The notes beneath the pieces are model-generated. The model was not told where the DNA came from. It was given only the letters and a program-made list of their open reading frames with translations, and did no database searches. DNA of 64,000 nucleotides from NCBI RefSeq assembly GCF_044324785.1, contig NZ_CP172127.1, one strand, 5' to 3'. This document shows positions 2 through 20,192 of this stretch, piece after piece; the first letter of the stretch is position 1; every line of letters starts with the position of its first letter. A program made the translations under genes and the position numbers. This DNA comes from Escherichia coli. Its GTDB lineage: Bacteria > Pseudomonadota > Gammaproteobacteria > Enterobacterales > Enterobacteriaceae.

Positions 2-538
2 CATCGCATACAGCTATCATGGTATGCGCGGAATACTGCTGGCAGTACGAACGCGTATAACTATTTCGCGCTATCGAGTGATCCAGACGTTTTGTCTGCT
101 CAGGCATACGGCCCCCCCGTGACCCAACCTGGATACGTCGATATGTATGTCCTGTCGCGAACCGGCGACGGCACTCCGCCTCAATCACTACTGAATACAG
201 TTAATGCAGCGCTGTCTCCTGATGACACCCGACCGCTAACCGATTTCGTTACAGTAAAACCTGCGTCGAACCTGAATTACCGGGTTGAGGCCGTTATCGT
301 AGCGGGGCTCGGTCCCGACCAGAACGTGTTGCTCGACGGTGCTCAGAGCGATTTAGCTATATACGTGGCTACACAACATAAAATCGGGGCGACGGCAGCT
401 CTGTCGGGAATTTACGATGCGATACACCGTGACGGCACTGAGCGTGTGATTCTGATATCGCCAACAGAGGATGTGATCGCTGGCGTCGGACAGGCCCCGC
501 ACTGCACAGAAATCAAACTCAGCGTGCAAATGGGGTAG
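2..538 (+). CDS. Baseplate assembly protein J-like, C-terminal part (truncated by window start)
   Basis: Reading frame is open from position 2 with no upstream stop; sits immediately upstream of the gpI-like gene as in P2. Assignment is by position and general resemblance only. Confidence 0.5.
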   Translation, partial: HRIQLSWYARNTAGSTNAYNYFALSSDPDVLSAQAYGPPVTQPGYVDMYVLSRTGDGTPPQSLLNTVNAALSPDDTRPLTDFVTVKPASNLNYRVEAVIVAGLGPDQNVLLDGAQSDLAIYVATQHKIGATAALSGIYDAIHRDGTERVILISPTEDVIAGVGQAPHCTEIKLSVQMG

Positions 539-540
539 CC

Positions 541-1167
541 ATGACAAGTCAAAGCGTACTGCCTCCGAACGCAATAACCCCCGAGAGAGCGCTGGAATCT
601 GTTTTATCTCACGTTGGCGATCTGCCTGGCGATATTCGAATTATTAAAAATCCCGATTTGTGTCCTGCAAATCTGTTGCCGTGGCTGGCGTGGGAATACG
701 CCGTCACCTACTGGAACCCCGACTGGAGCGAGCAGCAAAAACGCGAAATTATTAAAGCAGCTGCGTGGCAGAACAAGCACCGCGGAACGCGTGGAGCTGT
801 TGAACGAGCGTTATTAACAGTTGGATTTGAGAGCAAAATGAGAGAGTGGTTTGAAGCCACGCCGAGGGACGACCCGTATACATTCGCAATTAAAATATAT
901 CTGCTAAAAAGTATAGGGTTAGATTTAGAGCTATTGAATACATTTATAGCGCAAATATTTGATGCAAAAAATTGTCGTTCATTATTAAAGGAAATAAATT
1001 TCGAAACGGGTGTCGATGGTGAGTTTTTTATAGCCGGTACACCTTACGCGAAAATAGACGTAAACGTCCCAGCAGACGGCGACGGCGGTGTAAAAATTAA
1101 CGGCGGGCTATATATATCGGGCTCACCAATTGTTAGTTTAAATGTGGAGATAGGGCCAAATGGCTGA
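541..1167 (+). CDS. Phage tail/baseplate protein I-like
   Basis: 208-aa ORF between the J-like and H-like genes; start is 2 nt after the J stop and it overlaps the H start. Confidence 0.55.
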   Translation: MTSQSVLPPNAITPERALESVLSHVGDLPGDIRIIKNPDLCPANLLPWLAWEYAVTYWNPDWSEQQKREIIKAAAWQNKHRGTRGAVERALLTVGFESKMREWFEATPRDDPYTFAIKIYLLKSIGLDLELLNTFIAQIFDAKNCRSLLKEINFETGVDGEFFIAGTPYAKIDVNVPADGDGGVKINGGLYISGSPIVSLNVEIGPNG

Positions 1168-2284
1168 AAATAAAATTTACGCAGTACTGACAGACCGTGG
1201 CGCACAACTCGAGGCCGCTGCCCTGGCGTCAGGCGTTCCAGTGGTGCTGAACAAATTTGTTATCGGTGACGCGAACGGAAACGACGATGTAACACCAGAC
1301 CCTGCACGAACAGCATTAATTCACGAGACGTATCGCGGTGATATTAAATCGTCAGAAAATAGCGGTAATCAGGTTATTTTTACGCTATACGTACCACCGG
1401 AAACCGGCGGCTATACTATCCGCGAAGTGGGAATACTGACAGATAAAGGTGAACTGTACTCTGTAGCGCGTTCGCCGGATATTTTAAAACCCACGGACAG
1501 TAACGGCGCGCTGATTTCAATCACGTATAAATACACTCTCGCGGTGTCCAGCACCTCTACAGTTAATGTTGTAGTATATGACAACTACGTAACTCCCGAA
1601 GCAGCTGACAAAAAATATTTGCAGATAAGTAAAAACTTATCTGAAATTTCCGCAAATGGTGAAACTGCTCAGCAGGCTGCGCGGAAAAATATTGGTATAG
1701 ATGGGGATGTTGCATATAGAGATAAGAGTAATACATTTACAACTCAAAACACTTTCAAAGACGATGTTTTTTTTGAAGATATTTTGATTTCTAAAAAACA
1801 AATAAATATAAATAAACCAGATACCAACTTGACATTATTTTCGCTTGCGGGCTGGTCAGATGTGAGCGGTGATTATTTAGAAGTGTCGACGCGGGGGGGA
1901 AATAATCAAAACGTTTTTTATAGATTACGCGGAATTCACTATGACGGCCTGGTGTTACTGTGCGGCGGGCAGACGTATAAATATTGGAATGAGGGAAATC
2001 TTAAACCGGTTAAAACGATTAACGGGAAGTCCCCAGACGCTAACGGGAACGTCGCAATAACAGTAAGTAGCTCAGGGATACAGAACGTCCAGCTTGGCGC
2101 AGAGGTTGCTCACACACCGGCGAGTAATGAGGTTACGTGGGACTTTAAATGTCCGACCGGCTGTGTTCTTACTGGGATATATGTTCAGGAAACCGGCGAC
2201 AGCTCAGCTGATAATATCGGCGGTGTTTATTATAAACCGATCCAAAAATACATTAATAATGTATGGACTACGATTTCCGGATGA
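1160..2284 (+). CDS. Tail fiber protein, P2 gpH-like (short, 374 aa)
   Basis: N-terminal region (LIHETYRGD...YVPPETGGYTIREVGILTD) and C-terminal motif (YYKPIQKYINNVWTTISG) resemble the conserved ends of P2 gpH as I remember it; the central region is AT-rich. Confidence 0.7.
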   Translation: MAENKIYAVLTDRGAQLEAAALASGVPVVLNKFVIGDANGNDDVTPDPARTALIHETYRGDIKSSENSGNQVIFTLYVPPETGGYTIREVGILTDKGELYSVARSPDILKPTDSNGALISITYKYTLAVSSTSTVNVVVYDNYVTPEAADKKYLQISKNLSEISANGETAQQAARKNIGIDGDVAYRDKSNTFTTQNTFKDDVFFEDILISKKQININKPDTNLTLFSLAGWSDVSGDYLEVSTRGGNNQNVFYRLRGIHYDGLVLLCGGQTYKYWNEGNLKPVKTINGKSPDANGNVAITVSSSGIQNVQLGAEVAHTPASNEVTWDFKCPTGCVLTGIYVQETGDSSADNIGGVYYKPIQKYINNVWTTISG

Positions 2285-2287
2285 GTT

Positions 2288-2866
2288 ATGCAAAATTTAA
2301 AATCATTTAAGCTTGTAAAACCTAAAACGAAATTACTTAAACTTAGCGAGTCTGACGGACAAAATGTTTTGTATCTTCAGTCCGAAGACGGCCTGGATTG
2401 GTATGAATGCCAGTCACTGTATCGCGATGACACAGTAAAAATAATGTACGACAAAGAAAACATTATTCGATCAGTTGTTGATCGCCCGGTCCCGGAGCGA
2501 GGAAATACCTATTCTGTGAGCATGTTTTTCCCGATTGATATGAGTGTTACGGAGGTTGAGTTGAGCACATATCCTTCTGAGCTAACTCTCGACGGATCGT
2601 GGAAATTTGTTGACGGTGATGTATATCAAGATGAGCTCATTGTAAATGAGCGTATTTACAAAGAAAACTCCAAAAAAATTAATGAATTAGTCCGAGAGGC
2701 TCAGTCAGCAATTCTAAATTTACAAACGGCCATAGAGATTGATATTTCATCAGATGGTGATGAGGAAAAATTAATAGAATGGCGACGGTACCTGTGCGCG
2801 CTGAATAAAATAACAGCCACGGATCTGAGTCAGTCCCCACTTAACACGCCTTTACGACCAGCATAA
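2288..2866 (+). CDS. Tail fiber assembly chaperone (Tfa/gpG-like)
   Basis: 192-aa ORF immediately downstream of the fiber gene; AT-rich; position is typical of a Tfa. Confidence 0.55.
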   Translation: MQNLKSFKLVKPKTKLLKLSESDGQNVLYLQSEDGLDWYECQSLYRDDTVKIMYDKENIIRSVVDRPVPERGNTYSVSMFFPIDMSVTEVELSTYPSELTLDGSWKFVDGDVYQDELIVNERIYKENSKKINELVREAQSAILNLQTAIEIDISSDGDEEKLIEWRRYLCALNKITATDLSQSPLNTPLRPA

Positions 2867-2878
2867 ATAGGGTACCTA

Positions 2879-4384
2879 ATGAGCACTAATTTTTTACACG
2901 GTATTCGCACGCTCGAATACGACGACGGCACAAAAGAGATTAGCACGGTAGATATTTCAGTTATCGGGATTGTTGGTACTGCACCGGATTCCGCGCAATC
3001 AACCAGTTCCGAGTTAATAACAGGGAGTGCTATTTTAAAAAACCGCCTGAAATTCACGGCGACGGGACAGGGGGTGAACGGCAATTCATGGAGCGTAGAG
3101 ATTCTCGAAACCGATCCGGACGGCTGCACGGCACTGTGGAGTGATATGCCCGACGGGAGTCGACGTTTATCAATATCAGTCGCACCGGCATCCGGCTCGC
3201 ACGGATACACCCCAGCAGAAATCGTGCAGGCAGTCACAATAGCAAACCCGCCTCCGGACCAATTATTTTTAACAATTACGGCAGTAGATGTCGAGGAGGA
3301 CGCGGGAAATGTGACTGCCTCACCGTTGCAATATTTAAGCGGCGGCAGTGATGAGGCGTTCCCAATTAATACCCCCGTACTTGTTGCCGGGAGTCCAAAA
3401 AAATCCGCTTTACTGGGTGAGCGCGGCACGTTGCCGAAAGATATTGCCGATATTTTCAATCAGGACAACGCCTTGCTTGTTGTTGTACGAGTAAAAGATG
3501 ACAAAGACACAACAAAACAACAGCAAAATATTATCGACGGTGTCAAGCAGCTGGAAAAATCGAAACAGTTAACCGAAGTCACACCGCGTATTATTATTGC
3601 ACCAGATTTTAGCGCAATTGATGCGATAGCCGCTCAGCTTGAGGTGGCCGCAAATAAACTCCGGGGGGTGTGTTATATAGACTCTCCGCGCGCTGCTACC
3701 CCTGCAGACGTTGTGAATCGCCGGCAAAAACTCGGCGGACGTGCTGAGTTGTTGCGTCCCCGTGTTTATTCAACTAGCGACGTCGGGGGGCAATCAAGAC
3801 CGTATTCTGCCATCGCTGCTGGTTTACGAGCCAGAATTGATAATGAAAAAGGGTTTTGGTGGAGTAAGTCGAATCAAAATATTTATGGAATAACAGGGCT
3901 TGAGCAGGTTGATGATTTCATTATTGGCGAGACAAACTGCACAGCGAACCTGCTGAACGCTAGTCAGGTCAGCACCATCATTCGCTATGACGGATTCCGA
4001 CATTGGGGTAACTATCTGTGCAGCCTGGATCCGCAATGGTCGTTTGAATGCGTTCGTCGAACAGCTGACGTAATTGAGGATTCTATAGCCCGGGCAATGA
4101 TGACCGATTTTATTGATCGCCCGATAGACCTGCATCTCGGAACAGACGTTGTCGAGTCGATAAACGCGTATCTGCATAAATTAGAGGAGCAGGGTGCGAT
4201 TAACGGAGGGCGTGCGTGGTTAGACGGTGAGCTGAATACAAAAGAAAGTCTGGCCGCTGGCAATCTTTATATTAATGTTGATTTTGGTCCGAAATCTCCG
4301 GCACAAACAATTACGTTAATGTACCGCATTAATAATGACTATACAGTTGAAGCACTAGCCTCACTTTTTAAAGAAACAGCCTGA
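2879..4384 (+). CDS. Contractile tail sheath protein (gpFI-like)
   Basis: 501 aa; the N-terminal region (HGIRTLEYDDGTKEISTV...IGIVGTA) and later ...RYDGFRHWGN... resemble the P2 FI sheath family. Confidence 0.85.
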   Translation: MSTNFLHGIRTLEYDDGTKEISTVDISVIGIVGTAPDSAQSTSSELITGSAILKNRLKFTATGQGVNGNSWSVEILETDPDGCTALWSDMPDGSRRLSISVAPASGSHGYTPAEIVQAVTIANPPPDQLFLTITAVDVEEDAGNVTASPLQYLSGGSDEAFPINTPVLVAGSPKKSALLGERGTLPKDIADIFNQDNALLVVVRVKDDKDTTKQQQNIIDGVKQLEKSKQLTEVTPRIIIAPDFSAIDAIAAQLEVAANKLRGVCYIDSPRAATPADVVNRRQKLGGRAELLRPRVYSTSDVGGQSRPYSAIAAGLRARIDNEKGFWWSKSNQNIYGITGLEQVDDFIIGETNCTANLLNASQVSTIIRYDGFRHWGNYLCSLDPQWSFECVRRTADVIEDSIARAMMTDFIDRPIDLHLGTDVVESINAYLHKLEEQGAINGGRAWLDGELNTKESLAAGNLYINVDFGPKSPAQTITLMYRINNDYTVEALASLFKETA

Positions 4385-4401
4385 TAATTCGGAGAGTAAA
4401 T

Positions 4402-4914
4402 ATGTCAGACAGCAACGCTTACCGCGCGTTTGCGCTATTCGTGCAGGGCGAACGGGTTTTAAATTGTACTGAATATACTCCTGTCGATATGAAAATAATC
4501 GAGGACGAGTTTAAAACAGGCGCGATGGATACAGCTATCACATTAGATGGCGGTATGGAGAAAATGTCAGCCAGTTTTAAAGTTTCGGGTTCTGATTCTG
4601 GTGTTATGAGCTATTTCGGGTTAATACCGGGAGTCAAGACGCGGTTTGAAATTCGTAGTGCGTACACAGACTCCTATGGAATAAATTTTGAGCGTATTGA
4701 TACCTACGAGGGACTTATTACGGCAATCACTGATGACGCTCAGGGGACTGATTCAAAATCGTCAGTGGGGCAATCAGTAACGATTGCGCCGAGCTATTAT
4801 AAACGAGTTCAAAATGGACGAATTATTTACGAAATTCATCCTGCAAAAATGAAACGCGTTATCAACGGTGTTGATGTTCTTGCGGGCGTCGCTCGAATCC
4901 TTCATGTATATTAA
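4402..4914 (+). CDS. Tail tube protein (gpFII-like)
   Basis: 170 aa immediately after the sheath gene; size and position match FII. Confidence 0.8.
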   Translation: MSDSNAYRAFALFVQGERVLNCTEYTPVDMKIIEDEFKTGAMDTAITLDGGMEKMSASFKVSGSDSGVMSYFGLIPGVKTRFEIRSAYTDSYGINFERIDTYEGLITAITDDAQGTDSKSSVGQSVTIAPSYYKRVQNGRIIYEIHPAKMKRVINGVDVLAGVARILHVY

Positions 4915-4926
4915 AAGGTAAGTAAA

Positions 4927-5208
4927 ATGGAATCCTTATTAGACAGTATGACTATTACGCTCTCTCGACCGTTTATTATTAAGGGCGAGAGCTGCGATAC
5001 AATTACTATTCGCGAACCCAAATTACGCGACCGCATTATGTTCAGTAACGATAAAAGCAGTCTTGAAGAGCGGACAGCGACAATGCTGGCGCGCCTGGCA
5101 AATCTGGAAAGAGAGGATTTATATGCGCTCCCCGCGTGCGATTACGATCAACTGGAGGCCGCGTTTAACGAACTGGTAAAGCACCCGAAAGACCGACATC
5201 AGATATAG
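4927..5208 (+). CDS. Tail assembly chaperone (gpE-like); possible -1 frameshift extension E' to 5288
   Basis: 93-aa ORF between tube and tape measure. The -1 frame is open from 5169 to a TAA at 5286-5288. Confidence 0.55.
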   Translation: MESLLDSMTITLSRPFIIKGESCDTITIREPKLRDRIMFSNDKSSLEERTATMLARLANLEREDLYALPACDYDQLEAAFNELVKHPKDRHQI

Positions 5209-5316
5209 TTATTCTGATTCCGTTTATTGCGAAAAAACTTGCCATCCCGCCTGATACGCAAATGGACCTGCCGTATCGGGTTTTTAATTTCTATGTAGAC
5301 GAGGTCATGAAAACCG

Positions 5317-6957
5317 ATGGCTATTTCTCAAAACTTTAAAACGCAGGTTGTATTCGGGGGGCGAATAGACCCGTCGTTTCGGCGCGGTACAACAGAACTC
5401 AACGACGCCATTCGGCAGACGTCGTCTACTGTCGGAAAATTAACGAAAAGCCAGGATAAATTAAAAGACAAAATCGCAGCAATGAAACTGGCAGGTAAAG
5501 ATGTCTCTGATTTATCTGCTCAATATCAAAAGCTGGACCGTCGGATAAAGGCGACAACGCAGGACCAGGAGGCGCTGAATACCCAGCTTGCTAAAAAACA
5601 GCGGCTGGAGAAGTGGACGGGGCGCGCAAAAGGTGCTGCAAAATGGGGCGGACGAGCCGCCGCAGGTGCGGTGAGGGCCACGGGACGGGGTATCAAATGG
5701 GGGACGCTGGGGGCCGTGGGTCTGCTCGGCGGCGCGGCTGCTGGCGCGCTGGCAATGAATGCAGAGACGTCAGAAAAACTCGGTCTGGCGAAGTCCTACG
5801 GTGTTGGCATCGAAAAATACGCTGCGTGGGAAAATATTGGTAAAGCTGCGGGCCTGAACGGCGAAAATGTTGGTGACCTGTCAGAAGAACTTACAAATAA
5901 AATCGGCGAAATCGGAAACGAAAAAAACCTGAACCCCATGTTGTTTCAAATTGGCTTGACAAAAAAACGGATGGCTAAATGGGATCGAGAAAAACAGTTC
6001 AATGAAGTTATGCGGCGTATCTCTGAAATGAAGGATGATCAACAGGCGGCGAGTCTGGCTGATCAGCTAATGGGGGGAGAGGCTAATAAAATAATGACCT
6101 ATATGCGGGCGACTGGTAAAAGCTGGGAGCAGACTATGTCGGACGCTCAAAAATCAAACCTGCTAACGAAAGAAGGGGCTGAGGGTGCAGCGCGCGCGCA
6201 CGTATCCGTCACGAATCTGTGGGGGGCAATCACATCGGGGCTGGCAGATACTCTCGGCAAAATCGGAGGGGAACTCGCGCCGACGTTTGACGCTATGCGA
6301 GACGGGCTGGCATCCTGGTTTAAAGAGAATCAAGGGGGGGTTGTTGATAGTATTAAAGAATGGGTTAAGCCAGAAAATATGAAAAAACTTTGGGAGGGGA
6401 TAGTCAGTTTTGGCGAGGCGTGCGTTAAATTCGGAAAAATAATTTGGGCAGTCGTAAAAAAACTGGAGTGGTTAATCCCGGACGAGAAAACAGACGAGGA
6501 ACAGCGCGTATATAACGAAGAATATAATAAAGCGTATCAGGAATTCATGGATAGTGGTGGTAAATATTCACCGAACCCAGGACTGGCAGCAGATAATGTA
6601 GCAAAAGCAAAAGCCGACGAAGCCGTGGATAATATGCGACACCCTGAACGTCTTGCTCGTGCAAAATCACAGGCTGAATCAATGCTCTCGTTTGCTAACC
6701 CGTTTACTGGATTAATAAATAAAGACTCAACGCCTGAATCACAAAACTCAGCAACGTTGAATATTGACGCGCTGAGACAGGCAGTCGCAACTCCAGCGCC
6801 AGAGCAAAACAATAAAATTGAAATCAATATTATCGGAGCAGCAGATCCACAATCAACACAGCAGGCTGCCGCATCGGGTGTGCTCGACGGGCTGAGACAG
6901 GTTGCGAGTTCGTACAATCGTGGTGCAATGTTTGATAAACCAGCGGCGGCGGGGTGA
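5317..6957 (+). CDS. Tail tape measure protein (gpT-like)
   Basis: 546 aa, with an N-terminal coiled-coil-like region and a Gly/Ala-rich stretch (GRAAAGAVRATGRG...GLLGGAAAGALA); position after E. Confidence 0.8.
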   Translation: MAISQNFKTQVVFGGRIDPSFRRGTTELNDAIRQTSSTVGKLTKSQDKLKDKIAAMKLAGKDVSDLSAQYQKLDRRIKATTQDQEALNTQLAKKQRLEKWTGRAKGAAKWGGRAAAGAVRATGRGIKWGTLGAVGLLGGAAAGALAMNAETSEKLGLAKSYGVGIEKYAAWENIGKAAGLNGENVGDLSEELTNKIGEIGNEKNLNPMLFQIGLTKKRMAKWDREKQFNEVMRRISEMKDDQQAASLADQLMGGEANKIMTYMRATGKSWEQTMSDAQKSNLLTKEGAEGAARAHVSVTNLWGAITSGLADTLGKIGGELAPTFDAMRDGLASWFKENQGGVVDSIKEWVKPENMKKLWEGIVSFGEACVKFGKIIWAVVKKLEWLIPDEKTDEEQRVYNEEYNKAYQEFMDSGGKYSPNPGLAADNVAKAKADEAVDNMRHPERLARAKSQAESMLSFANPFTGLINKDSTPESQNSATLNIDALRQAVATPAPEQNNKIEINIIGAADPQSTQQAAASGVLDGLRQVASSYNRGAMFDKPAAAG

Positions 6958-7382
6958 CAATGAGTGATGCAATAAACGGTGCTGAGGATATCATGCTCGG
7001 TTTGGGTGATTTCATTTTTGCTATATCAACAGTAGCGTACAACAAACTGCAACGTAGTGACGCCTGGCGCTGGGCTCAGCAAACACGATTCGGGAAAAAC
7101 GACGCATTGCAGATAACCGGACGACCGAACCCCACAATCACGATCGATGGGAAAATAAACGCGTTATTCCTTGATGGGTGCGGCATTGGCTTGTTAACAG
7201 ATTTGCGGGCACTGGGGAACTCGGGAGAACCCCAGCAACTGGTGCTGGGGACCGGGGAGGTGAAGGGGTACTGGGTTATCAGGGAGTTAACAGAAACGCA
7301 AAACAGTTTTCTGAAAGGAGGGACCCCAAAATCGCAGGACTTTTCACTCACGCTCGAATATTATGGAGCTTCGCTAGATTAA
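6954..7382 (+). CDS. Tail protein gpU-like
   Basis: 142 aa, overlaps the tape-measure stop (ATGA); position. Confidence 0.6.
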   Translation: MTMSDAINGAEDIMLGLGDFIFAISTVAYNKLQRSDAWRWAQQTRFGKNDALQITGRPNPTITIDGKINALFLDGCGIGLLTDLRALGNSGEPQQLVLGTGEVKGYWVIRELTETQNSFLKGGTPKSQDFSLTLEYYGASLD

Positions 7383-7544
7383 TACAAAATCAAGCGCTAC
7401 CAGAGCACTTAACAAGTATAAAAATAATAAAAAAAACTACGAGCATAAATGTAAAACAACCTGATGGTATTTTTTTTTGACGCCGAAATACTAATACCTC
7501 TCCGACTACTAAAATTAATTCTCATTATGAAATCCTTTTAATTA

Positions 7545-7769
7545 ATGGGGCCCCAAATGATTACATACACTACACGGGACGGTGACCGTCTCGATCAGAT
7601 CTGCCTTGCTGTCTACGGGAGAACAGCAAAAACGACAGAAACCGTGTTATATCAGGTTTTAAATTACGGCGTAACGGATATGTGTGCCGTGTTTCGTGCA
7701 GGAGAAAAAATTGTTTTACCAGAAATCGACCCCGAACCGGCTAAAAAAGAAACGCAATTATGGGATTGA
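7545..7769 (+). CDS. Tail protein X-like (LysM-like); a start at 7557 (MITYT...) is also possible
   Basis: Sequence ...DRLDQICLAVYGRT...ETVLYQVLNYGV...AGEKIVLPEI... resembles P2 gpX as I remember it. Confidence 0.65.
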   Translation: MGPQMITYTTRDGDRLDQICLAVYGRTAKTTETVLYQVLNYGVTDMCAVFRAGEKIVLPEIDPEPAKKETQLWD

Positions 7770-7772
7770 TGA

Positions 7773-8816
7773 ATGAGTGATTACGTAAATACTGGCGTGG
7801 AAGCATGGAAGCCCAATTTTTATATATCTGCTGATAATGAAAACATCACGGATAAAATAAGAAAAGGTTTGATCAATATCACGCTCACAGATTATGGTGG
7901 TTCGAGTAAACAGACAGACGAATTACGCGTAGCAATCGTTTCTGAAACTCTGAAAATTCCGGCCCGCGGAGTAAAAATCAGTATTGGGCTCGGTTTCGGT
8001 AATCAGATAATTGATAAGGGTGTATACATCGTTGATGGTGCGAGCAGTGGCGGTGAACCCCGGGTAGTTGATTTCACAGCAAAAGCAGCTCCGATGAACG
8101 CATCAAAAGGCTCTCCGACAGTTCAGAGCAAAAAAACTCGCTCCTGGAGCGACGTCACTGTCAGCAATATCGTTGCAACAATAGCGAGCGATAACGGGCT
8201 AAAACCTCGCGTATCAAAGCGGTTTGCAGACAACATTATCACGCAGCTCGATCAAGTCGGCGAGTCAGATATGCACCTGATGTCGCGGCTCGCAACGAGA
8301 TTCGATGCGGTGAGTAAACCCGCGGGCGGGTACTGGATATTCCTGCCGCGCGGCGCGGGCGAATCTGTTAGCGGAGCACCGCTTCAGCACTACACGCTCA
8401 CGCGTCGTGATAACTCAAGCTGGGGTTATTCGAGAAATGGACAAAACGGTGATAGTGGCGGAGGTGGCGAAAATGCGGAGCCAACGTATTTGATCAAATA
8501 TCACGATACAGCAACGGGGCAGATCAAAGAATTGCGTACGGGCAGTGGCGGCGATCCTGTAATCGAGTGGCCGGCAGTGGAGCCGTCGCTTGATGCAGCG
8601 AAAGAAGCTGCGCCAGGACTCAAGGGCGGTGCAGCTAAAAAAGAGTTCTCCATGACTTACACGACGCCCGCGACGCTCGATTTAGTATCGCTGACTGCAG
8701 AATGCAAAGTCACAACACAAGGATTCGGGACAGAGGAGGACCGAGACTGGACAATCAATACGTTGACGCTGACGCTGGCTGAAAACGGATTCTCTGCGCG
8801 ACTGTCGCTGGAGTAA
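7773..8816 (+). CDS. Tail protein D-like
   Basis: 347 aa immediately after the X-like gene, as in R-type pyocin/phiCTX-like clusters. Confidence 0.65.
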   Translation: MSDYVNTGVEAWKPNFYISADNENITDKIRKGLINITLTDYGGSSKQTDELRVAIVSETLKIPARGVKISIGLGFGNQIIDKGVYIVDGASSGGEPRVVDFTAKAAPMNASKGSPTVQSKKTRSWSDVTVSNIVATIASDNGLKPRVSKRFADNIITQLDQVGESDMHLMSRLATRFDAVSKPAGGYWIFLPRGAGESVSGAPLQHYTLTRRDNSSWGYSRNGQNGDSGGGGENAEPTYLIKYHDTATGQIKELRTGSGGDPVIEWPAVEPSLDAAKEAAPGLKGGAAKKEFSMTYTTPATLDLVSLTAECKVTTQGFGTEEDRDWTINTLTLTLAENGFSARLSLE

Positions 8817-8821
8817 ATGAA

Positions 8822-10648
8822 ATGGCAATAATATCGGGTGTATACGCAAATGGGGTCGGCGAGCCCGTTGTCGGCGTTCAGTTAGTATTAACAGCACGGG
8901 TCACGAGTTCACGCGTAGTAATGACCACTGTTGTAGAGCAAGAAACAGGCGCGGCGGGTGAGTACAAATTTGATATGAAGCCCGGAGTTTACGTTGTCAC
9001 TGCTAGTGCGGCATATCTCGGCGTGATTAACGTTAACCCGGACAGTGTTGACGGCACGTTAAACGACTATTTGACTAATTTTAGCGCAGACGAACTGACG
9101 CCAGCTGCGTTGGCGGAGATCCAGGAACTCGTTGCCACAGCACAAGCCGCTGCCAGTGTTGCCAGCGCCGCCGCAACGGAGGCCAGGCAGAATGCCGCCG
9201 CCGCCGCTGCTGCTGCGCAGATTTCGACGGCAGCGGCAGGGAGCGCCAGATTTGAGAATTTTGACGAAATTATCAATGTCAATACAACAGCAATGCTGGA
9301 GCTGGAAAAACCGGAGGTGTTAGATCCGGATATTGCAATAACTATCACAGAGACGATTAATTATAACTATATTGGCCCGGTAAACGGATTTTGCGACGTT
9401 ACTAGCCCGCTTGAATATAAAATTCAAATGTACGCCTACACAACAGGCGAATATTTTAACGGCGAAACAAATTTAACAGCGGACGGGAAGTTTTCTTTTA
9501 AACGTTCCTGGGCTGGTGCAAAACAATTCAGATTGGTGCGCGTAGCAGATAGTAAATGGATCACTACGCTGGAATACCCGCTGTGTATTCGCAGTTACTG
9601 GATGCCCGCTGACGCCGATCCCGAGGTAGTCAGCGTCATGAAAGACCGTTGCTACACATATGATCAGGCGTGCGCGGCGCTGGCTCTCATGGCGCAGAAT
9701 CACGAGGCGGTAGAGCGTTATGTTACGGGTCTGTGCGCCCTGGTGGGTGAAAACGGCGGCATTAAATTTTTTGTTAACCGGCTGTCCGCACAGTCCTCCC
9801 GCGAATATTACCGCACGGGTAACGCGGCGTGGGTGTTGTACGCCCTGGCATTCTATCTGAGCAAATACCCTACCGGCAGTAACGCTGAGTTAGCGCGCGC
9901 GAAATTAAACGCCGGGCTAACCTGGCTGGACGGTCTGAAGGTTGACGCCAGCGGCGACCCGCGCCACGGCTTATACATGGGCGGCAACGGTAAATATCTG
10001 GAGGACGGATCATTTGATCCGAATTATGTTGCGACCTGGTGCGCGCTCGAGCACAACGTTGATATTTATTTTTTATTCGAACTCGTTGGACGGTTAACCG
10101 ATTTTACCGGATACGAACTGCGAGCCACCACGCTGGCTGCAAATATCGTGGAAAAATTCTGGATTGAGAGCGAGGGGCGATTCCGGCAGGGCGTGCACAT
10201 TGACGGCCCGGACAACGCCGCAGCGCTGGATCAATCGAGTTGGGGCGGGATATTCGCAGTAAAAGCCGCGCCGGAGTTGGCGGAAAAATGCCGCCGTTAT
10301 ATGGAAAGATTCCGGTTCGGCACACTGGAGAGCACCGGTTATACACCGTATCACCCGGACTACGGATACAGCGGCCATAGCCGTGGCGTGTGGACCGAGG
10401 GTACAGCGGGTGTAGCACTATTCGAACGTGCGCTAGGGAACGAGCAGAGAGCTACCGATCTGATCGCGGGATTAAAACCACTGCGTAATGAATACGGCTA
10501 TCGCGACTCATGCGACGATAAAAAATACGACACACTGCCGGACTGGCCGTCGACTACAAACACCGCTTGGGTTATTTTAACATGCAAGCCGGCGGGGTTT
10601 TGGTGCGTAGATTTCCCGGTATTGGACGTTGGTATCGTCAGGTACTGA
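8822..10648 (+). CDS. Side-tail-fiber-like protein: lambda Stf-like N-terminal domain, Ala-rich linker, and an unassigned ~400-aa C-terminal domain
   Basis: N-terminus MAIISGVYANGVGEPVVGVQLVLTARV...GEYKFDMKPGVYVV...GTLNDYL parallels the lambda Stf N-terminus. An AAAAAAAAQISTAAAG stretch follows, then a Trp/Tyr-rich globular region with no transmembrane or signal sequence. Confidence 0.6.
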   Translation: MAIISGVYANGVGEPVVGVQLVLTARVTSSRVVMTTVVEQETGAAGEYKFDMKPGVYVVTASAAYLGVINVNPDSVDGTLNDYLTNFSADELTPAALAEIQELVATAQAAASVASAAATEARQNAAAAAAAAQISTAAAGSARFENFDEIINVNTTAMLELEKPEVLDPDIAITITETINYNYIGPVNGFCDVTSPLEYKIQMYAYTTGEYFNGETNLTADGKFSFKRSWAGAKQFRLVRVADSKWITTLEYPLCIRSYWMPADADPEVVSVMKDRCYTYDQACAALALMAQNHEAVERYVTGLCALVGENGGIKFFVNRLSAQSSREYYRTGNAAWVLYALAFYLSKYPTGSNAELARAKLNAGLTWLDGLKVDASGDPRHGLYMGGNGKYLEDGSFDPNYVATWCALEHNVDIYFLFELVGRLTDFTGYELRATTLAANIVEKFWIESEGRFRQGVHIDGPDNAAALDQSSWGGIFAVKAAPELAEKCRRYMERFRFGTLESTGYTPYHPDYGYSGHSRGVWTEGTAGVALFERALGNEQRATDLIAGLKPLRNEYGYRDSCDDKKYDTLPDWPSTTNTAWVILTCKPAGFWCVDFPVLDVGIVRY

Positions 10649-10676
10649 CAATTATAATTTTTGGAGTTTTTTATAC

Positions 10677-11096
10677 ATGGTCGTTAAAAATATTCTTGCC
10701 TTTGGGATTATGTGTGCGCTTGCTGGTTGTGCAACCAAGCCAGTCTCAAACGAGCAGGCTACTCCCGTTCCAGAAAAACAGGTAATCAATAGCGCAATAC
10801 TCGAAAAAAGAGATGGGACAGGAGAGGTGATCATCAAGCGTGATTCGGGTTTCTTTGGGAGCGCGTGCTTTTCCCGTGTTTATGTTGATGGTAAAGAGGT
10901 GGCAGATTTAGGTACAGCTCAGAAAGTCGTTGTATACCCAACGATTGGTGATCATGTCTTCAGCGCGTGGCCAAAAGGAGTATGTGGTGGTGGCATGAGT
11001 GAGCAGGCGGGCAAGGTGACAACAGATCGTACTTTGATGTATCGCATAGGTTACGGTTCAAACGGTGAATATGGCATTCACCCAACTGCGTTTTAA
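10677..11096 (+). CDS. Small predicted outer-membrane lipoprotein (prophage cargo)
   Basis: GGAG about 10 nt upstream of the ATG at 10677. Signal peptide MVVKNILAFGIMCALAGC with lipobox LAGC; the residue after Cys is Ala (not an Asp inner-membrane retention signal); several Cys in the mature part. Confidence 0.55.
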   Translation: MVVKNILAFGIMCALAGCATKPVSNEQATPVPEKQVINSAILEKRDGTGEVIIKRDSGFFGSACFSRVYVDGKEVADLGTAQKVVVYPTIGDHVFSAWPKGVCGGGMSEQAGKVTTDRTLMYRIGYGSNGEYGIHPTAF

Positions 11097-11253
11097 CTGT
11101 GTTGGGTATGCGATTTTATTCGCATACCCCTTAGGGCAATTGACGATACTTCCAAATGACCATTATTTTACGTGTGGCCTCGATGTTGCGCACATGAGAG
11201 TTCTATATTCTTTCAAACAGGATTATCCCATTGATTTAATTATACTTTCGTAT

Positions 11254-11314
11254 GGTCTCGAAAACCGGAGTAGGGGCAACTCTACCGGGGGTTCAAATCC
11301 CCCTCTCTCCGCCA
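11254..11314 (+). repeat. Partial 3' copy (61 nt) of tRNA-Ser(CGA), serU-like; putative prophage attR
   Basis: GGTCTCGAAAACCGGAGTAGGGGCAACTCTACCGGGGGTTCAAATCCCCCTCTCTCCGCCA matches the anticodon-stem-to-CCA part of E. coli serU as I remember it. The upstream sequence does not match the tRNA 5' half. Confidence 0.8.
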
Positions 11315-11860
11315 CTTTATCAATGACTTATCTCCCGACTTCCCGCCTTGCTTTTCCTAAACAGAACAATCGTAGAATATTCTTGAAGGGTTAGATCGTC
11401 ACTGTTTTCTGTTCGATACTGTGACATTCAGCACTTGATTCGCTATGGATCTGACAGGAAGGTTTCGAGCGAAAATCTGCAGTTATTCAGTCGTTTTCTT
11501 ATCGCTCACCATTATTCTTTTAGACATTCATCCTATGAAACTGCCGCAAAGTTGGTGGTGGGAACTGAAGTTGCGTAGAGAAGGGGGCAATAATTGAGCC
11601 AAAAAAGGAACGCGGCCGTCAGATTAAAGCCGCGGGACAAAGTCCATAATTTCCAAGAGTTGTTGAATTTCCCAGCTTTTTTGAAAGCCTTTGTATCATA
11701 CTAACAAGTAAAAAAGGTTTAAATACCAAAATTAACCTATATTTCTGGTTAGCTTTACCATGACAGATGACTTGCTTCTGGAGACATTGGCGCTGCCAGT
11801 CTGTATTGGTGAGTTGTGTATTTATTGTTCGCCGCTTTCTCGGTTTTTTTCTACAGACAT

Positions 11861-11894
11861 AATAAAAAAGACACGTCTCAAGCATGAGCGTGTC
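11861..11894 (-). terminator. Rho-independent terminator downstream of zinT
   Basis: Hairpin GACACGTCTCA-AGCA-TGAGCGTGTC, followed on the minus strand by a T-run. Confidence 0.6.
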
Positions 11895-11983
11895 TGAGTT
11901 TGTTTTATTTATTTGTCTTGGTAAATTATTGTCGTTACTACCAGGCACTGTTCTGTTAAATAATTGAAGTCAGCGCAAAAAAA

Positions 11984-12634
11984 TCAATGAGACATCATCT
12001 CCTCGACCACTTCTTCGCTACTCAACTGATAGGGATAATACGTTGGCCAGTTTTCCATTTCATTTAATAAAGATTGCTGTGAATCATTACCCATAAAAAT
12101 GTGAAAATGAGATGATTTTCGTGGTGCAATTATATGATCGCTAAATTGAATATATTTAGGGGCTTTGCTTTCAGGATCTTTACATTCGAATAAGTAACGA
12201 ACGCCTTTCTTGCCTGATTTATAGGTGAGTATTTTGTATCCATCATAATCATATTTACAGGATGTTGTTTCATTATTTCTATGGAATTCAACAATGCCGT
12301 CCTCAATGCCAATCATCTCGATATCTGTCACATAACCTTTGCGATAATAATCTTTAATTTCAGCAAATGTTTTAGTTTTATCTGCATCCGCTTTCTTCTG
12401 AAAGACGGGGTCAAGTTTGCCACTTTGCAGTAAAGGATAAACGGATTGCCAGACTCCATCCCAGTCACTGAGCGTTCGGTTTTGTACATTGGCATCATCA
12501 AAAACACCATTAGCAGCTTTTTGTTCGACCTCTGTTAAGGGTTTGCCGTGTGAGTGATGACCATGCGAAAAGGCAGGAGCGCTAACAATAAAGACACCTA
12601 AAGCAACAGCCAGTTTATGAAGACGAATCGCCAA
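11984..12634 (-). CDS. zinT: Zinc/cadmium-binding periplasmic protein ZinT (YodA)
   Basis: 216 aa with signal peptide and His-rich HGHHSHG motif; recognised as E. coli ZinT. Confidence 0.9.
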
Positions 12635-12668
12635 AACAGTTTCCTCCAGAGTTAATGTATATGATGTG

Positions 12669-12689
12669 TAATGTTATATTGTAACATAT
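12669..12689. promoter_or_regulatory. Candidate Zur box upstream of zinT
   Basis: Near-palindrome TAATGTTATATTGTAACATAT about 35 bp upstream of the zinT start codon. Confidence 0.55.
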
Positions 12690-12812
12690 AACAAAATGCA
12701 ACAACTCTTAGGAGACAAGAGAATAGTTATCTCAGGTGTGCTTATCTATCTTATTGAAATAAAATAAATTATGTCGATGATTTGAGGTTGATGACAAACG
12801 AAACATAACTTG

Positions 12813-12860
12813 ATGTGATCTGCGTAGGCCGGATAGGGCGCTCGCGCCGCATCCGGCAGG
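12813..12860. repeat. REP (repetitive extragenic palindromic) element
   Basis: GCGTAGGCCGGATAGGGCGCTCGCGCCGCATCCGGCAGG is the typical E. coli REP consensus type. Confidence 0.7.
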
Positions 12861-12890
12861 GATAACGCGTACTTTGTCGGCAATATGAAG

Positions 12891-13526
12891 TTATACAGAT
12901 AATTTGTTGTGAACCTGCTTGCGTAACCGGTTAAAAAGGGAACGCAACTTCTTATACCGTAAGGCTAAAAGCAGTACAGCCAGCCCAGCGTAGATGAGTG
13001 GCTGCGGTGAAATAATCTTCACTGACCACAGATAATGTACTGGGGCAAGGATCGCGACAAGATAGACGAAGTTATGCAACTGTTGCCAGTTTTTGCCGAG
13101 TTTTCGCTGCATCGCCTGGGTTGAAGTGAACGCTAAAGCAAGCAAAATTATCCAGCTGATAATACCTAACGTTAAATAAGGCCGGGTAATTAACTCCTTG
13201 CCTAATAACGCCAGATTATTCACGCCCAGCTCCAGTAATGCGTAACTGGTTAAATGCAGTGTCGCCCAGGCAAAGCACCATAAGCCTAACAGGCGGCGAG
13301 TGCGTATCAATAACGGCTGTTTTGCGTAGCGTGCCAGAGGTGTGATTAACAAGGTCGCCAGCAAAAATTTCAGTGCAGTGCGACCAGTAAAATGCTGAAT
13401 ATCTTTCACCGGATCGGCACCCAATCCACCGTGATTAATCGCCCAGACCAGCCAGAGAAACGGCAACAATCCGGCAAGATGCAGGCAAACTTTCAGCCAT
13501 GTCACCTGTTTTGCTGTCAGACGCAT
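12891..13526 (-). CDS. msrQ: Methionine sulfoxide reductase heme-binding subunit MsrQ (YedZ)
   Basis: 211-aa polytopic membrane protein directly downstream of msrP; recognised. Confidence 0.9.
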
Positions 13527-14537
<1,011 letters not shown>

Positions 14538-14639
14538 TCACACTTTTTTGTCTTTAGCCAGCAAGAGCCGTTTACTGTTAATCTGTCAGGGAGTCACCTC
14601 CCTAACAGTAGCAGAGATCTGCTTTTACATATTTATGCA

Positions 14640-15053
14640 TTAACTGCCACGATAGGTTGAATACCCATATTGGCTAAGTAATAAAGGCACATGATAATGC
14701 TCGTTCACTTTATTAATATGAAATTCAACGGGGATCTCAGGGAAGAAACTTTCAAGATTTTGTTTCTTGAAATAGTCCCCGGTTTTAAATACGACACGGT
14801 AATCGCCCGTAGTTGCAGTTTGCTCGGGCCACAGTGCCTTAATTCGTCCATCCTTATCTGTTTTGGCGGTATTAAGTTGTAACCAGCCGTTATCCGCTTT
14901 CTTTTCAAGAGTGACTGTCACGTCGGCAGCGGGTTTTCCTGTTTGCTGGTTCAAAATGTGCACGCTAAGAATGTTTTGTTGTGCAGCATAGACCAAAGAA
15001 GGTAATGAAAATGCAGCCGTTACTACGGAGAGTACTAAATAACGCTTTAACAT
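14640..15053 (-). CDS. hiuH: 5-hydroxyisourate hydrolase (transthyretin-like) HiuH (YedX)
   Basis: 137 aa with signal peptide and C-terminal YRGS, the transthyretin-family signature. Confidence 0.9.
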
Positions 15054-15122
15054 GTTTATATCCTTGTCATGTGAATGAGTTTTGAGGATAGCGAAAAAGC
15101 GTCCAGGGTAACCTTACAGAAG

Positions 15123-15140
15123 CATTACAATTTTGTAATG
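15123..15140. promoter_or_regulatory. Perfect 18-bp palindrome in the hiuH-hprR divergent region; candidate HprR/CusR-type box
   Basis: CATTACAATTTTGTAATG lies between the divergent hiuH and hprR starts. Confidence 0.6.
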
Positions 15141-15185
15141 AACCAGGCTGTTTCTATAACATATGATTTATGGCATATTATTTTC

Positions 15186-15857
15186 ATGAAGATTCTACTT
15201 ATTGAAGATAATCAAAGGACCCAGGAATGGGTAACGCAGGGGCTTTCCGAAGCGGGTTATGTCATTGATGCCGTTACTGATGGCAGAGATGGGCTTTATC
15301 TTGCGCTGAAGGATGATTATGCATTGATCATTCTGGATATTATGCTTCCGGGTATGGATGGCTGGCAGATCTTACAAACGTTAAGAACGGCAAAGCAAAC
15401 TCCTGTTATTTGCCTTACTGCAAGAGATTCTGTCGATGACAGAGTCAGAGGGCTGGACAGTGGGGCAAATGATTATCTGGTAAAACCTTTTTCATTTTCT
15501 GAGTTGCTGGCAAGGGTTCGGGCACAATTAAGGCAACATCACGCTTTGAATTCAACATTAGAAATCAGCGGCTTAAGAATGGACTCTGTTAGTCAAAGTG
15601 TGAGCAGGGACAATATCAGTATTACACTGACGCGCAAGGAGTTTCAGTTACTTTGGCTACTGGCCTCCAGAGCTGGCGAAATTATACCCAGAACGGTTAT
15701 TGCGAGTGAAATTTGGGGAATCAACTTTGATAGTGATACCAATACGGTGGATGTCGCCATTCGCAGGCTCCGCGCAAAAGTTGATGATCCTTTTCCTGAA
15801 AAGCTAATCGCCACAATCCGGGGGATGGGCTATTCATTCGTAGCGGTAAAAAAATAA
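15186..15857 (+). CDS. hprR: Two-component response regulator HprR (YedW)
   Basis: OmpR-family receiver plus winged-helix domains (MKILLIEDNQRT...); start chosen at MKILLIEDN. Confidence 0.9.
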   Translation: MKILLIEDNQRTQEWVTQGLSEAGYVIDAVTDGRDGLYLALKDDYALIILDIMLPGMDGWQILQTLRTAKQTPVICLTARDSVDDRVRGLDSGANDYLVKPFSFSELLARVRAQLRQHHALNSTLEISGLRMDSVSQSVSRDNISITLTRKEFQLLWLLASRAGEIIPRTVIASEIWGINFDSDTNTVDVAIRRLRAKVDDPFPEKLIATIRGMGYSFVAVKK

Positions 15858-17215
15858 TGAAAAGATTATCTATAACCGTCCGTTTAACCTTGCTTTTTAT
15901 ATTGCTGCTGTCTGTTGCTGGCGCTGGAATTGTCTGGACTCTCTATAATGGCCTGGCAAGTGAGTTGAAATGGCGCGATGATACAACACTCATTAACCGG
16001 ACAGCGCAGATCAAGCAGTTGTTAATTGATGGGGTAAATCCAGATACGTTACCTGTGTACTTTAACCGGATGATGGATGTTAGTCAGGATATCTTGATCA
16101 TTCATGGTGATGGCATCAATAAAATTGTTAACCGGACGAATGTCAGTGATGACATGTTAAATAACATACCTGCTACTGAGACAATCAGCGCAGCTGGCAT
16201 TTACAGAAGCATTATTAATGACACTGAGATAGATGCTTTACGAATTAATATTGATGAAGTTTCGCCATCATTAACGGTTACTGTGGCTAAATTGGCTTCA
16301 GCCAGACATAACATGCTTGAACAGTATAAAATTAATAGCATTATAATTTGCATTGTCGCCATTATACTGTGCTCAGTATTAAGTCCGTTGTTAATCAGAA
16401 CGGGGTTACGAGAGATCAAAAAGTTGAGTGGTGTAACGGAAGCGCTGAATTATAACGATAGCCGAGAGCCTGTTGAGGTTAGCGCATTACCGAGAGAACT
16501 AAAACCTCTTGGGCAGGCGTTGAATAAAATGCACCAAGCCTTAGTCAAAGATTTTGAACGCCTAAGTCAATTTGCTGACGATCTCGCTCATGAACTTAGA
16601 ACGCCAATTAATGCATTACTGGGTCAGAATCAGGTTACGCTCAGTCAAACCAGAAGTATCGCTGAATATCAAAAAACAATTGCCGGAAACATTGAAGAGC
16701 TGGAAAATATTTCGCGGTTAACAGAGAACATACTGTTTCTTGCCAGGGCAGATAAAAACAATGTTTTGGTGAAACTGGATTCGCTTTCTCTCAATAAGGA
16801 AGTCGAAAATTTGTTGGACTATCTTGAATACCTTTCAGACGAGAAAGAGATTTGCTTTAAGGTCGAGTGCAATCAGCAAATCTTTGCGGATAAAATTTTA
16901 CTGCAACGAATGTTATCGAATCTTATTGTTAACGCTATTCGATATTCACCAGAAAAATCGCGCATTCAGATAACCAGTTTTCTTGATGCCAACGGCTCTC
17001 TTAATATTGATATCGCCAGCCCTGGAACGATAATTAATGAGCCTGAAAAACTCTTCCGTAGATTTTGGCGGGGAGATAATTCGCGTCATTCCGTAGGTCA
17101 GGGACTTGGTCTTTCTTTAGTCAAAGCGATTGCCGAATTGCATGGGGGAAGTGCTACGTATCACTATCTCAATAAGCATAACGTGTTCCGAATTACGTTA
17201 CCGCAAAGAAATTAA
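15857..17215 (+). CDS. hprS: Sensor histidine kinase HprS (YedV)
   Basis: 452 aa with two TM segments, HAMP-like region and H-box (AHELRTPIN); start overlaps the hprR stop. Confidence 0.9.
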   Translation: MKRLSITVRLTLLFILLLSVAGAGIVWTLYNGLASELKWRDDTTLINRTAQIKQLLIDGVNPDTLPVYFNRMMDVSQDILIIHGDGINKIVNRTNVSDDMLNNIPATETISAAGIYRSIINDTEIDALRINIDEVSPSLTVTVAKLASARHNMLEQYKINSIIICIVAIILCSVLSPLLIRTGLREIKKLSGVTEALNYNDSREPVEVSALPRELKPLGQALNKMHQALVKDFERLSQFADDLAHELRTPINALLGQNQVTLSQTRSIAEYQKTIAGNIEELENISRLTENILFLARADKNNVLVKLDSLSLNKEVENLLDYLEYLSDEKEICFKVECNQQIFADKILLQRMLSNLIVNAIRYSPEKSRIQITSFLDANGSLNIDIASPGTIINEPEKLFRRFWRGDNSRHSVGQGLGLSLVKAIAELHGGSATYHYLNKHNVFRITLPQRN

Positions 17216-17322
17216 TATATGTCTTCAGTACGCCTTAAATTAACCATGAAAAAACGCAGCTACGTCGTGAGTATTAACGTGGCTGCGATTGATTATGCGC
17301 TTACATTACAATGTAACAGGGA

Positions 17323-18174
17323 TTAACTCGAGTAAGCGGCCAGCATTTCCTGCGCCGCCAGTTTACCCAACGCATTCGCTGCGAAAGGACTGTCGCCGGT
17401 GAGAACTTTACGGTCCTTATGTACTCGTCCGGTGATGTCGTCATTAATGATGTTCATGCCCATTTTCTTCAGCTCTTCGCCGAAGTACCAGGTGAGATGA
17501 CCCGGCATATAGCCTATCTCTGGCGTTTGTTTGTCTGCGGCGTCTGGGAATGCGCAAATGGAATAACCATTCAGTGGGTTATCGCCGTGGCGAAGCGCCA
17601 GAAAAGCCGCCGGGCCGTGGCAAAGGGAGATAACAAAACGGTCATTTTTGATTGCCCACTGTAAAGCGGCAGCTACGTCCTGGCTTTCAGGTAAACCAAT
17701 AAGTGCGCCATGACCACCAGGAACAAAGATTGCTGCATATTCGCTGTCAGCGTTGAGGCTGGCGACAACATCCGCGAGTTTCTTCGGATTGCGGAACAAC
17801 GATTTATGCTGCTCAAAGAATGGCATTACTTTTTCATCTTTGTGCGGCATAGCCCAGTATTCAAACTTGGTCATCAGACCGGAAATGGTCGCCACTTCGA
17901 ATTCGAAACCTGCAGCATGGAGATGATACAACGGCAGCAACGTTTCAATCGGATGGTTACCGGTCGAGAACAGTTTTCCGTTATCGGTCGGCAAATAACG
18001 TTCGTCCGCGGCGATCACCAGAATTTTATGTTTACCGCGATACGGTTTTGGATAGTCCACGCCATCAAGATCAGAGACAGGACTGGTATATTGGCTAAGC
18101 GAATATTCTGAAGGGAAGAATGCATTATCTTCAGCAATATCGACCTGCGGATTTTTACTTGTTTGAACAGTCAT
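17323..18174 (-). CDS. hchA: Hsp31 glyoxalase/chaperone HchA
   Basis: 283 aa; recognised as E. coli HchA (DJ-1/PfpI family). Confidence 0.9.
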   Translation of the reverse strand: MTVQTSKNPQVDIAEDNAFFPSEYSLSQYTSPVSDLDGVDYPKPYRGKHKILVIAADERYLPTDNGKLFSTGNHPIETLLPLYHLHAAGFEFEVATISGLMTKFEYWAMPHKDEKVMPFFEQHKSLFRNPKKLADVVASLNADSEYAAIFVPGGHGALIGLPESQDVAAALQWAIKNDRFVISLCHGPAAFLALRHGDNPLNGYSICAFPDAADKQTPEIGYMPGHLTWYFGEELKKMGMNIINDDITGRVHKDRKVLTGDSPFAANALGKLAAQEMLAAYSS

Positions 18175-18683
18175 AGTGTATTCCTTATTGTTGCTTAGTT
18201 AGGGTAGTCACTATATTTGCGACTGAGCTGGTCGCTATTTTTAACCAGGCTGGAAAATTGAGTCAATATATCGAAAGCGGTAGTCGGCGGGTGTAAGTAT
18301 GTAATGATGATGCTGCACTGGTGTTGAATATTATTCACGCCAAATTTTCCTTATTGAGCTACGTCGTCGCAAGTGGCCTCAATGATTTTAGACCATTATC
18401 AAAGGTACGGGGCGGCGGGGAGAGATTTAGTTATGTGGAATATTATGGTACTGATGAATATTTATATCCCGGATTGGCAGAGAAAAAGCTTTTTTCATGC
18501 ACTATTTTTGCAAATATTTCTATATGGGAGGCGGTTTTGTTGCGGATTAATTCATAAAGAAATGCATTTGGGTGTTGGCTGGAAGAGACGCTAGTAGATT
18601 TTATTGAGCCAGGAGGGGCGGGGTAATGTGCTGTATCGATATGCTTTGGCAATTGCGTGTGCCGCAGATGGAGATGAAATGCC

Positions 18684-18722
18684 AATAAAAAAGCCTGAGT
18701 TCGATGAGGGACGAACTCAGGC
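18684..18722 (-). terminator. Rho-independent terminator downstream of the porin gene
   Basis: Hairpin GCCTGAGTTCG...CGAACTCAGGC, followed on the minus strand by TTTTTTATT. Confidence 0.6.
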
Positions 18723-18765
18723 TATTGTTATGTTTTACAGTAACACGCCGCAGCGCGTTGGCTGA

Positions 18766-19881
18766 TTAGAACTGGTAGACGATACCAACTGCAAACTGGT
18801 CATCAGCTGCTGCGCCAGTAATGGCGGCGTCATCTTTATCCAGCATGTTGAATTTGTATGCAGTATAAACGTTCATGTTCTTATTGAAGTAGTACCAGGT
18901 ACCAACTTCAATGTAGTTCACACGGTCAGCGTCAACATATCTATGTCCAGGTACACCTTTGATATCTTTACCTTTAGAATACACATAACCTAAGGACGGA
19001 CGCAGACCAAAGTCGAATTGATACTGAACAACCGCTTCAAAGTTCTGGGTTTCATTGATAAGTTGATCACGCATTATTGTATTGCCTTCTCGATCGGCAA
19101 CACCTGTATCAATAGAACCCGGAGTCATATTACGAGTTTCACCGTACATTACAGCTGCGTAGACATTGTTCGCGTCATACTTTGCAGCCAATGACCACAG
19201 TTCAGCATTTGAACCGTTTCCATCGGCAACTTGATCGTTGGTGCGATCAGATTTGCTATATGCACCAACGATACCAAAACCATTGATGTTATAGTCTACA
19301 GACAACGCATAGCCGTCACCATTTTGTTTCTTAGTGCTACGGTTGCTGTTTTTGCCTTGGTACTGAATCGCAAAATCAAGACCATCAACCAGGCCAAAGA
19401 AATCATAGTTACGGTAGGTTGCAACACCGTTGGTACGACCATTCATGAAGTTGTCAGCGGAAGCCCAGGAATCGCCACCCCATTCAACTAACATATCGGT
19501 ATAAGCTGCGGCATCATAAGCAACACCGTAGTTACGGCCATAGTCAAATGATCCTAACTCGTTATATTTCAAACCGGCGAAGGTTAAACGGGTTTTTTCC
19601 TGGTTTTCACCTTCAGGTTTGCTGGCGTCGAGGTTGTATTCAAACTGACCGAAACCAGTCAGTTCGCTGGTGATTTGGGTTTCACCTTTAACACCGAAAC
19701 GAGCATAGGAGGTATCTTCGTTTTCGCTGTTATTATCATCAGTATTTGACCAGATGCGTTCGCCAACCATCTTGCCGTAGAAATCAACTTTATTGCCATC
19801 TTTATTATAAATTTCAGCCGCATTTGCTGCGCCAGCAACTAATAACGCCGGGACCAGCATTGCCAGAACTTTTCTTTTCAT
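18766..19881 (-). CDS. yedS: OmpC/OmpF-family outer-membrane porin, apparently intact (YedS-like)
   Basis: Signal peptide [21 protein letters not shown], then [10 protein letters not shown], and C-terminal ...VGIVYQF typical of general porins. One uninterrupted ORF at the K-12 yedS position. Confidence 0.85.
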
Positions 19882-20192
19882 TATGTATTCCCTTGTGATT
19901 ATAATCTTCATGAATATATCAATAAGTGCCGTTATCCAAAAAAAAGCACATTTGGATACTATTCTATGAAGTTCATTTTATTTTAAGGATTACATGTAAC
20001 AAATGTATTTAAAAGATTTCAAAATGTTTCTAATCTATTTAATATAATTCAGAATTATGAATTCTAGATATAAATATTCATGATAATTATGAATATATAT
20101 CAATATGTTATGAGTTGATTGGAAAGATAGGAAGTATCAATGATTGCGGCGCTAAACGGCTGATGTGATCACGCGCACATTAATGAAGGCAT

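Follow-up and report, generated by a model that had tools for sequence, protein, structure and literature searches.

The 20 bp at positions 12667..12686 of the 64-kb stretch of Escherichia coli DNA analyzed here (the window) almost certainly constitute the Zur operator of the zinT promoter. This operator is already known, and our analysis adds nothing new to it. Zur binding, its stoichiometry, the fold repression, and the position of the site relative to the transcription start are taken from the literature; the match to the Zur box, its rarity, the identity to the published probe, and the conservation were determined in this analysis.

Results

The window includes the zinT region of the E. 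coli chromosome

The window comes from an E. coli chromosome: positions 11900..13000, a segment annotated with zinT and msrQ, match 5417 of 5426 complete E. coli genomes. The product of the zinT gene matches the Pfam ZinT family (PF09223, E = 3e-85), and the gene order hiuH-msrP-msrQ-zinT is found both in the closest genome and in K-12. These checks place the window securely in the zinT-msrQP-hiuH region of E. coli. The window does not include zur, which E. coli carries at another place on its chromosome.

On the far side of zinT, the synteny shared with K-12 and the closest genome ends at 11254, a position within the tRNA-Ser gene serU, of which no more than the 3' ~61 nt are left beside zinT. 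ARAGORN found no intact tRNA in 1..20000. Left of the junction (1..11253) lies prophage DNA, including a 608-aa tail-fiber open reading frame (8822..10648) with a prophage tail-fiber N-terminal domain (PF08400); phage records (Escherichia vB_EcoM) whose annotations include tail genes match the segment 5000..11253 with 89% identity over 69% of its length. This arrangement looks like a prophage integrated in serU. The next gene after zinT in K-12, yodB, is missing both here and in strain 18KM2445.

A near-palindrome upstream of zinT forms part of a longer, two-dimer operator

The initial annotation, made from the sequence alone, had reported a near-palindrome just upstream of the zinT start and had read it as a Zur operator overlapping the zinT promoter. 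The near-palindrome is indeed there: the window has a single copy of TGTTATATTGTAACA, 38-52 nt ahead of the zinT start codon. Its two 7-nt arms flank one central base (a 7-1-7 inverted repeat, TGTTATA / T / TGTAACA) and pair with a single mismatch. It is still unique in the window when up to two mismatches are allowed, at which level 0.08 occurrences are expected by chance and 8 of 100 shuffled sequences contained one. An inverted-repeat finder did not report the palindrome because its arms are only 7 nt long; the finder returned only an imperfect GC-rich inverted repeat, GCCGGATAGGGCGC / GCGCCGCATCCGGC, at 12828..12857. This second repeat, situated between the msrQ stop codon and the zinT promoter, looks like a REP-type extragenic palindrome, and K-12 has a similar GC-rich repeat at the equivalent position.

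The complete operator occupies the interval from 33 to 52 nt ahead of the zinT start, and a -10-like hexamer lies within it (Table 1). Its plus strand reads as four pentamers, TGTAA TGTTA TATTG TAACA. In the rule derived by Gilston et al., each Zur dimer reads RNNNY-N3-RNNNY and two dimers are offset by 5 bp (PMC4219657). By the RNNNYxxxRNNNY rule of that study we infer that the 15-mer TGTTATATTGTAACA accommodates one Zur dimer and is the better of two overlapping sites, and the dimer-of-dimers geometry described there would place the second dimer on 12667..12681; the assignment of pentamers to dimers is likewise a prediction from these rules. The palindrome that had been taken for the operator thus accounts for one dimer site, and the full operator is 5 bp longer towards zinT, with its dyad between 12676 and 12677 rather than at 12679. 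The extent originally proposed, 12669..12689, holds the whole palindrome but stops 2 bp short of the operator's end on the zinT side, and at its other end it takes in 3 bp that are not conserved.

Table 1. Coordinates of zinT, its Zur operator, and associated promoter features in the window
Feature	Position	Strand	Remarks
zinT (yodA) coding sequence	11984..12634	minus	216 aa, TTG start; the regulated gene; RefSeq annotation in the closest genomes and K-12
Shine-Dalgarno sequence GGAGG	12643..12647	minus	8 nt ahead of the TTG start; read from the sequence
Equivalent of the K-12 zinT gel-shift probe	12652..12698	minus	47 nt; 46/47 nt identical
Approximate transcription start	12663	minus	implied by the published -23 to -4 box (PMC5916954), mapped onto window coordinates
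Complete two-dimer Zur operator	12667..12686	minus	sense strand TGTTACAATATAACATTACA; dyad between 12676 and 12677
Putative second Zur dimer site	12667..12681	.	plus strand TGTAA-TGTTA-TATTG; offset 5 bp towards zinT
15-mer TGTTATATTGTAACA	12672..12686	.	form TGTTA-N5-TAACA; pentamers 2 and 4; putative one-dimer site
Alternative -10 hexamer TAACAT	12671..12676	minus	19-bp spacer; 2 bp further on than TATAAC
Putative -10-like hexamer TATAAC	12673..12678	minus	inside the operator, 17 bp from TTGCAT; read from the sequence
Putative -35-like hexamer TTGCAT	12696..12701	minus	read from the sequence

The operator matches independent descriptions of the Zur box

The structure-based two-dimer Zur box TGWNAYRWTATAWYRTNWCA (Gilston 2014, PMC4219657) fits 12667..12686 with 0 mismatches. 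When as many as two mismatches were tolerated, 0.16 matches were expected in the window, and no shuffled sequence gave two. The same 20 bp also fit exactly the purine/pyrimidine skeleton RNNNYRNNRYNNYRNNNY, which consists of two overlapping RNNNY-N3-RNNNY dimer sites and is seen here as GTTACAATATAACATTAC, although this skeleton is low in information and its fit is therefore weak evidence by itself.

We also scored the window with a symmetrized weight matrix of 26 columns that was trained on the K-12 znuA/znuC, ykgM, and pliG operators only, with zinT left out. This matrix rests on only three sites, which themselves score 27-31 bits. The two best matches in the window were 12669..12694 (18.7 bits) and 12664..12689 (15.5 bits), which are two registers of one site, 5 bp apart. 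Across 200 simulated 64-kb windows, the maximum score averaged 11.6 (sd 2.15) and the largest was 18.5. The comparison with a Zur weight matrix that had been suggested along with the initial reading therefore came out in its favor, with the best score of the 64 kb lying above those of all the simulated windows.

An older, 23-bp consensus, GAAATGTTATANTATAACATTTC (GAAATGTTATA-N-TATAACATTTC), returned no match when the window was searched at up to three mismatches; at 12668..12690 it has 4 mismatches of 22. Validated operators differ from this consensus by 2 (znuC), 3 (pliG), and 6 (ykgM) mismatches, a range that includes the 4 of zinT.

The third-best matrix match in the window, TATTGTTATGTTTTACAGTAACACGC at 18723..18748 (14.3 bits), lies ~550 nt upstream of hchA and follows an OmpC-like porin gene (minus strand, 18766..19911) at a distance of ~20 nt; it is probably a chance match because its score falls in the range of the simulated maxima. 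A search of 12635..12760 with the 19-bp Fur-box consensus GATAATGATAATCATTATC gave a best match with 8 mismatches, which is background level, as 438 positions in the window match as well or better.

The Zur box is conserved while the rest of the zinT promoter diverges

A scan for the ZinT protein, with one genome per species, recovered 80 loci across Enterobacterales, 77 of them long enough to score. In 69 of these 77, the best matrix match of the whole 3.6-kb locus falls in the 350 nt preceding zinT, and its distance to the start codon is 35-65 nt in most. Eight further loci, from Proteus, Morganella, and some Providencia (L070, L058, L064, L065, L075, L076, L080, and L082), have no such box at zinT itself, and their best match is an excellent box ~450 nt upstream. 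Only in Serratia sp. DD3 was a good box lacking. We read one of the eight, that of Proteus alimentorum (L070, 1044..2121), in which the box heads an L31B-L36B-zinT cluster. L31B and L36B are zinc-independent, Zur-regulated ribosomal-protein paralogues; at this locus a single operator thus stands ahead of three genes of the Zur regulon.

In an alignment of 12 genera, an invariant TGTTA.A.T.TAAC block stands out, together with the Shine-Dalgarno sequence and the TTG start, from a promoter that has otherwise diverged. The GAGG of the Shine-Dalgarno sequence is almost invariant between genera. Around the TTG start (12632..12634), the context TTTTGG is invariant in 12 aligned sequences from Escherichia and seven other genera, which suggests that the weak TTG start codon of zinT may itself be maintained.

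Within Escherichia, we compared eight sequences that took in the most divergent E. coli alleles among 4876 genomes. The 20-mer TGTTACAATATAACATTACA is fixed in them save at one position, which differs only in E. albertii, and the flanks vary. The six bases just upstream of the operator occur among E. coli lineages as GTTATA, GCTATA, TTCATA, and GTCATA. The 81-nt promoter stretch of the window itself is at least 99% identical in 736 of the 4876 matching genomes.

Zur binding and repression are published for essentially this sequence

The closest known counterpart of this site is the K-12 zinT (yodA) operator (PzinT; Gilston et al. 2014, PLoS Biol, PMC4219657). It occupies the same locus, with the same msrP-msrQ-zinT order, an identical 20-bp operator, an identical distance to the TTG start, and an identical Shine-Dalgarno sequence. 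The gel-shift probe used for it, CATTTTGCTATATGTTACAATATAACATTACACATCATATACATTAA (Table S2, PMC4219657), differs from the window at a single position, 12691, where the sense strand has T here and C in K-12; this polymorphism falls just outside the operator. In gel shifts, the K-12 probe is bound cooperatively by a dimer of Zur dimers with a Kd-app of 0.053e-18 M2, and zinT mRNA is 984-fold lower in the wild type than in a zur deletion strain, the strongest repression in the regulon (PMC4219657). In O157:H7, deletion of zur leads to constitutive accumulation of ZinT (PMC3053223). The Zur-dependent regulation of zinT that the initial annotation expected has therefore been published for what is essentially the sequence of the window.

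Other members of the regulon place this operator in context. The znuA/znuCB operator, for which a (Zur2)2-DNA complex has been crystallized (PDB 4MTD), shares with zinT the 20-bp pattern of four pentamers (TGTGA TATTA TAACA TTTCA at znuC, TGTTA CAATA TAACA TTACA at zinT here), the skeleton RNNNYRNNRYNNYRNNNY, and the overlap with a promoter. Unlike zinT, however, it serves a divergent promoter pair, is repressed only ~7-fold, and binds Zur ~150 times more weakly (PMC4219657). The ykgM (L31B) and pliG operators belong to the same motif family and served here as independent training sites; each departs from the 20-mer pattern at 1 position, in contrast to the perfect fit of zinT, and pliG differs from zinT in passing through a single-dimer intermediate (PMC4219657).

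The operator overlaps the zinT promoter

The zinT Zur box has been placed at -23 to -4 relative to the transcription start (Velasco 2018, PMC5916954), which bears out the proposed overlap with the promoter. We found this position only as a secondary statement in that paper and found no primary mapping of the zinT transcription start in the literature. A start near 12663 would give a leader of ~29 nt. Upstream of such a start, the -10 element may, on sequence grounds, be either TATAAC, with a 17-bp spacer to the -35-like TTGCAT, or TAACAT, with a 19-bp spacer. Most other genera have a TTGA/TTGC element as well, 7-12 bp upstream of the box core.

A generic sigma-70 consensus scan passed over this proximal zinT promoter; the hexamer pairs that it reported lie 115-135 nt upstream of the start codon. 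The scan missed TATAAC because it demands a T at position 6 of the hexamer. The distal hexamers are less likely to be the zinT promoter because they have neither the conservation nor the published position relative to the transcription start.

Discussion

The reading of this element as a Zur operator is supported by an exact match to TGWNAYRWTATAWYRTNWCA, first rank with a matrix built from other Zur sites, and Zur binding to a probe 46/47 identical to the window (PMC4219657). We considered whether the palindrome could instead have arisen by chance in an AT-rich promoter, as essentially a -10 region to which no regulator binds. In favor of this view, the region is rich in A and T, the element includes a -10-like TATAAC, and the shuffles described above show that a comparable 15-mer turns up now and then. 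However, both half-sites are invariant between genera whose promoters have diverged, including positions that sigma-70 does not need. The independent matrix gives the site the top score of the window, higher than in any of 200 simulated windows; it also places a box upstream of zinT in 69/77 loci, and Zur binding to the near-identical probe has been published (PMC4219657). A chance palindrome is thus extremely improbable. We consider it just as hard to credit that the site belongs to a different metal-responsive or Fur-family regulator, such as Fur itself. The boxes of Fur and Zur do resemble each other in being AT-rich inverted repeats, and in early work on yodA, mutations in fur and soxS reportedly affected its induction. 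Nevertheless, the Fur consensus matches 12635..12760 at background level only, and the site has the TGTTA/TAACA pentamers specific to Zur as well as an exact fit to the Zur pattern.

A different possibility accepts Zur as the regulator and changes how it acts. RNA polymerase would initiate at a distal promoter, TTGTCA-18-CATAAT (12797..12768), and would be stopped during elongation by Zur bound ~80-100 nt downstream, which would act as a roadblock. This pair is the best promoter-like match of the consensus scan (10/12), it lies on the zinT strand, and the proximal promoter went uncalled. The published position of the box at -23 to -4 (PMC5916954) argues against this arrangement. Moreover, the region of the distal hexamers lacks conservation even among genera that retain the box, most genera have a -35-like TTGA/TTGC 7-12 bp upstream of the box core, and it is the position-6 rule only that keeps the scan from recognizing TATAAC. 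We therefore regard a roadblock as highly unlikely and favor a Zur operator that overlaps the promoter from which zinT is transcribed.

The single strain-specific feature of the site is the base at 12691, which is polymorphic among E. coli strains. The change from C to T on the sense strand creates a third TGTTA pentamer immediately upstream of the operator (TGTTA-TA-TGTTA-CAATA-TAACA-TTACA) and takes a secondary, non-conserved register (12672..12691) from 3 mismatches to 2; the independent matrix scores that register highest. Conceivably, the T allele could bring in an additional Zur dimer or change the register of binding and thereby alter the zinc set-point of zinT among E. coli lineages, but we consider such an effect very unlikely.

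The operator and its position are consistent with the following model of zinT control. When cytoplasmic zinc is sufficient, two zinc-loaded Zur dimers would bind cooperatively to opposite faces of the 20-bp element. Because this element takes in the promoter spacer, the -10 region, and the last bases ahead of the transcription start, RNA polymerase should be kept out while Zur is in place, and zinT would stay silent. When zinc becomes scarce, Zur would lose its regulatory zinc and leave the DNA, and zinT would be derepressed ~1000-fold; periplasmic ZinT would then help ZnuABC to scavenge zinc.

The initial annotation had only the sequence to go on and came within a few bases of the true limits of a known operator; the site thereby serves as a positive control for such readings. 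For E. coli, zinT is one of four characterized Zur sites and the most strongly repressed of them.
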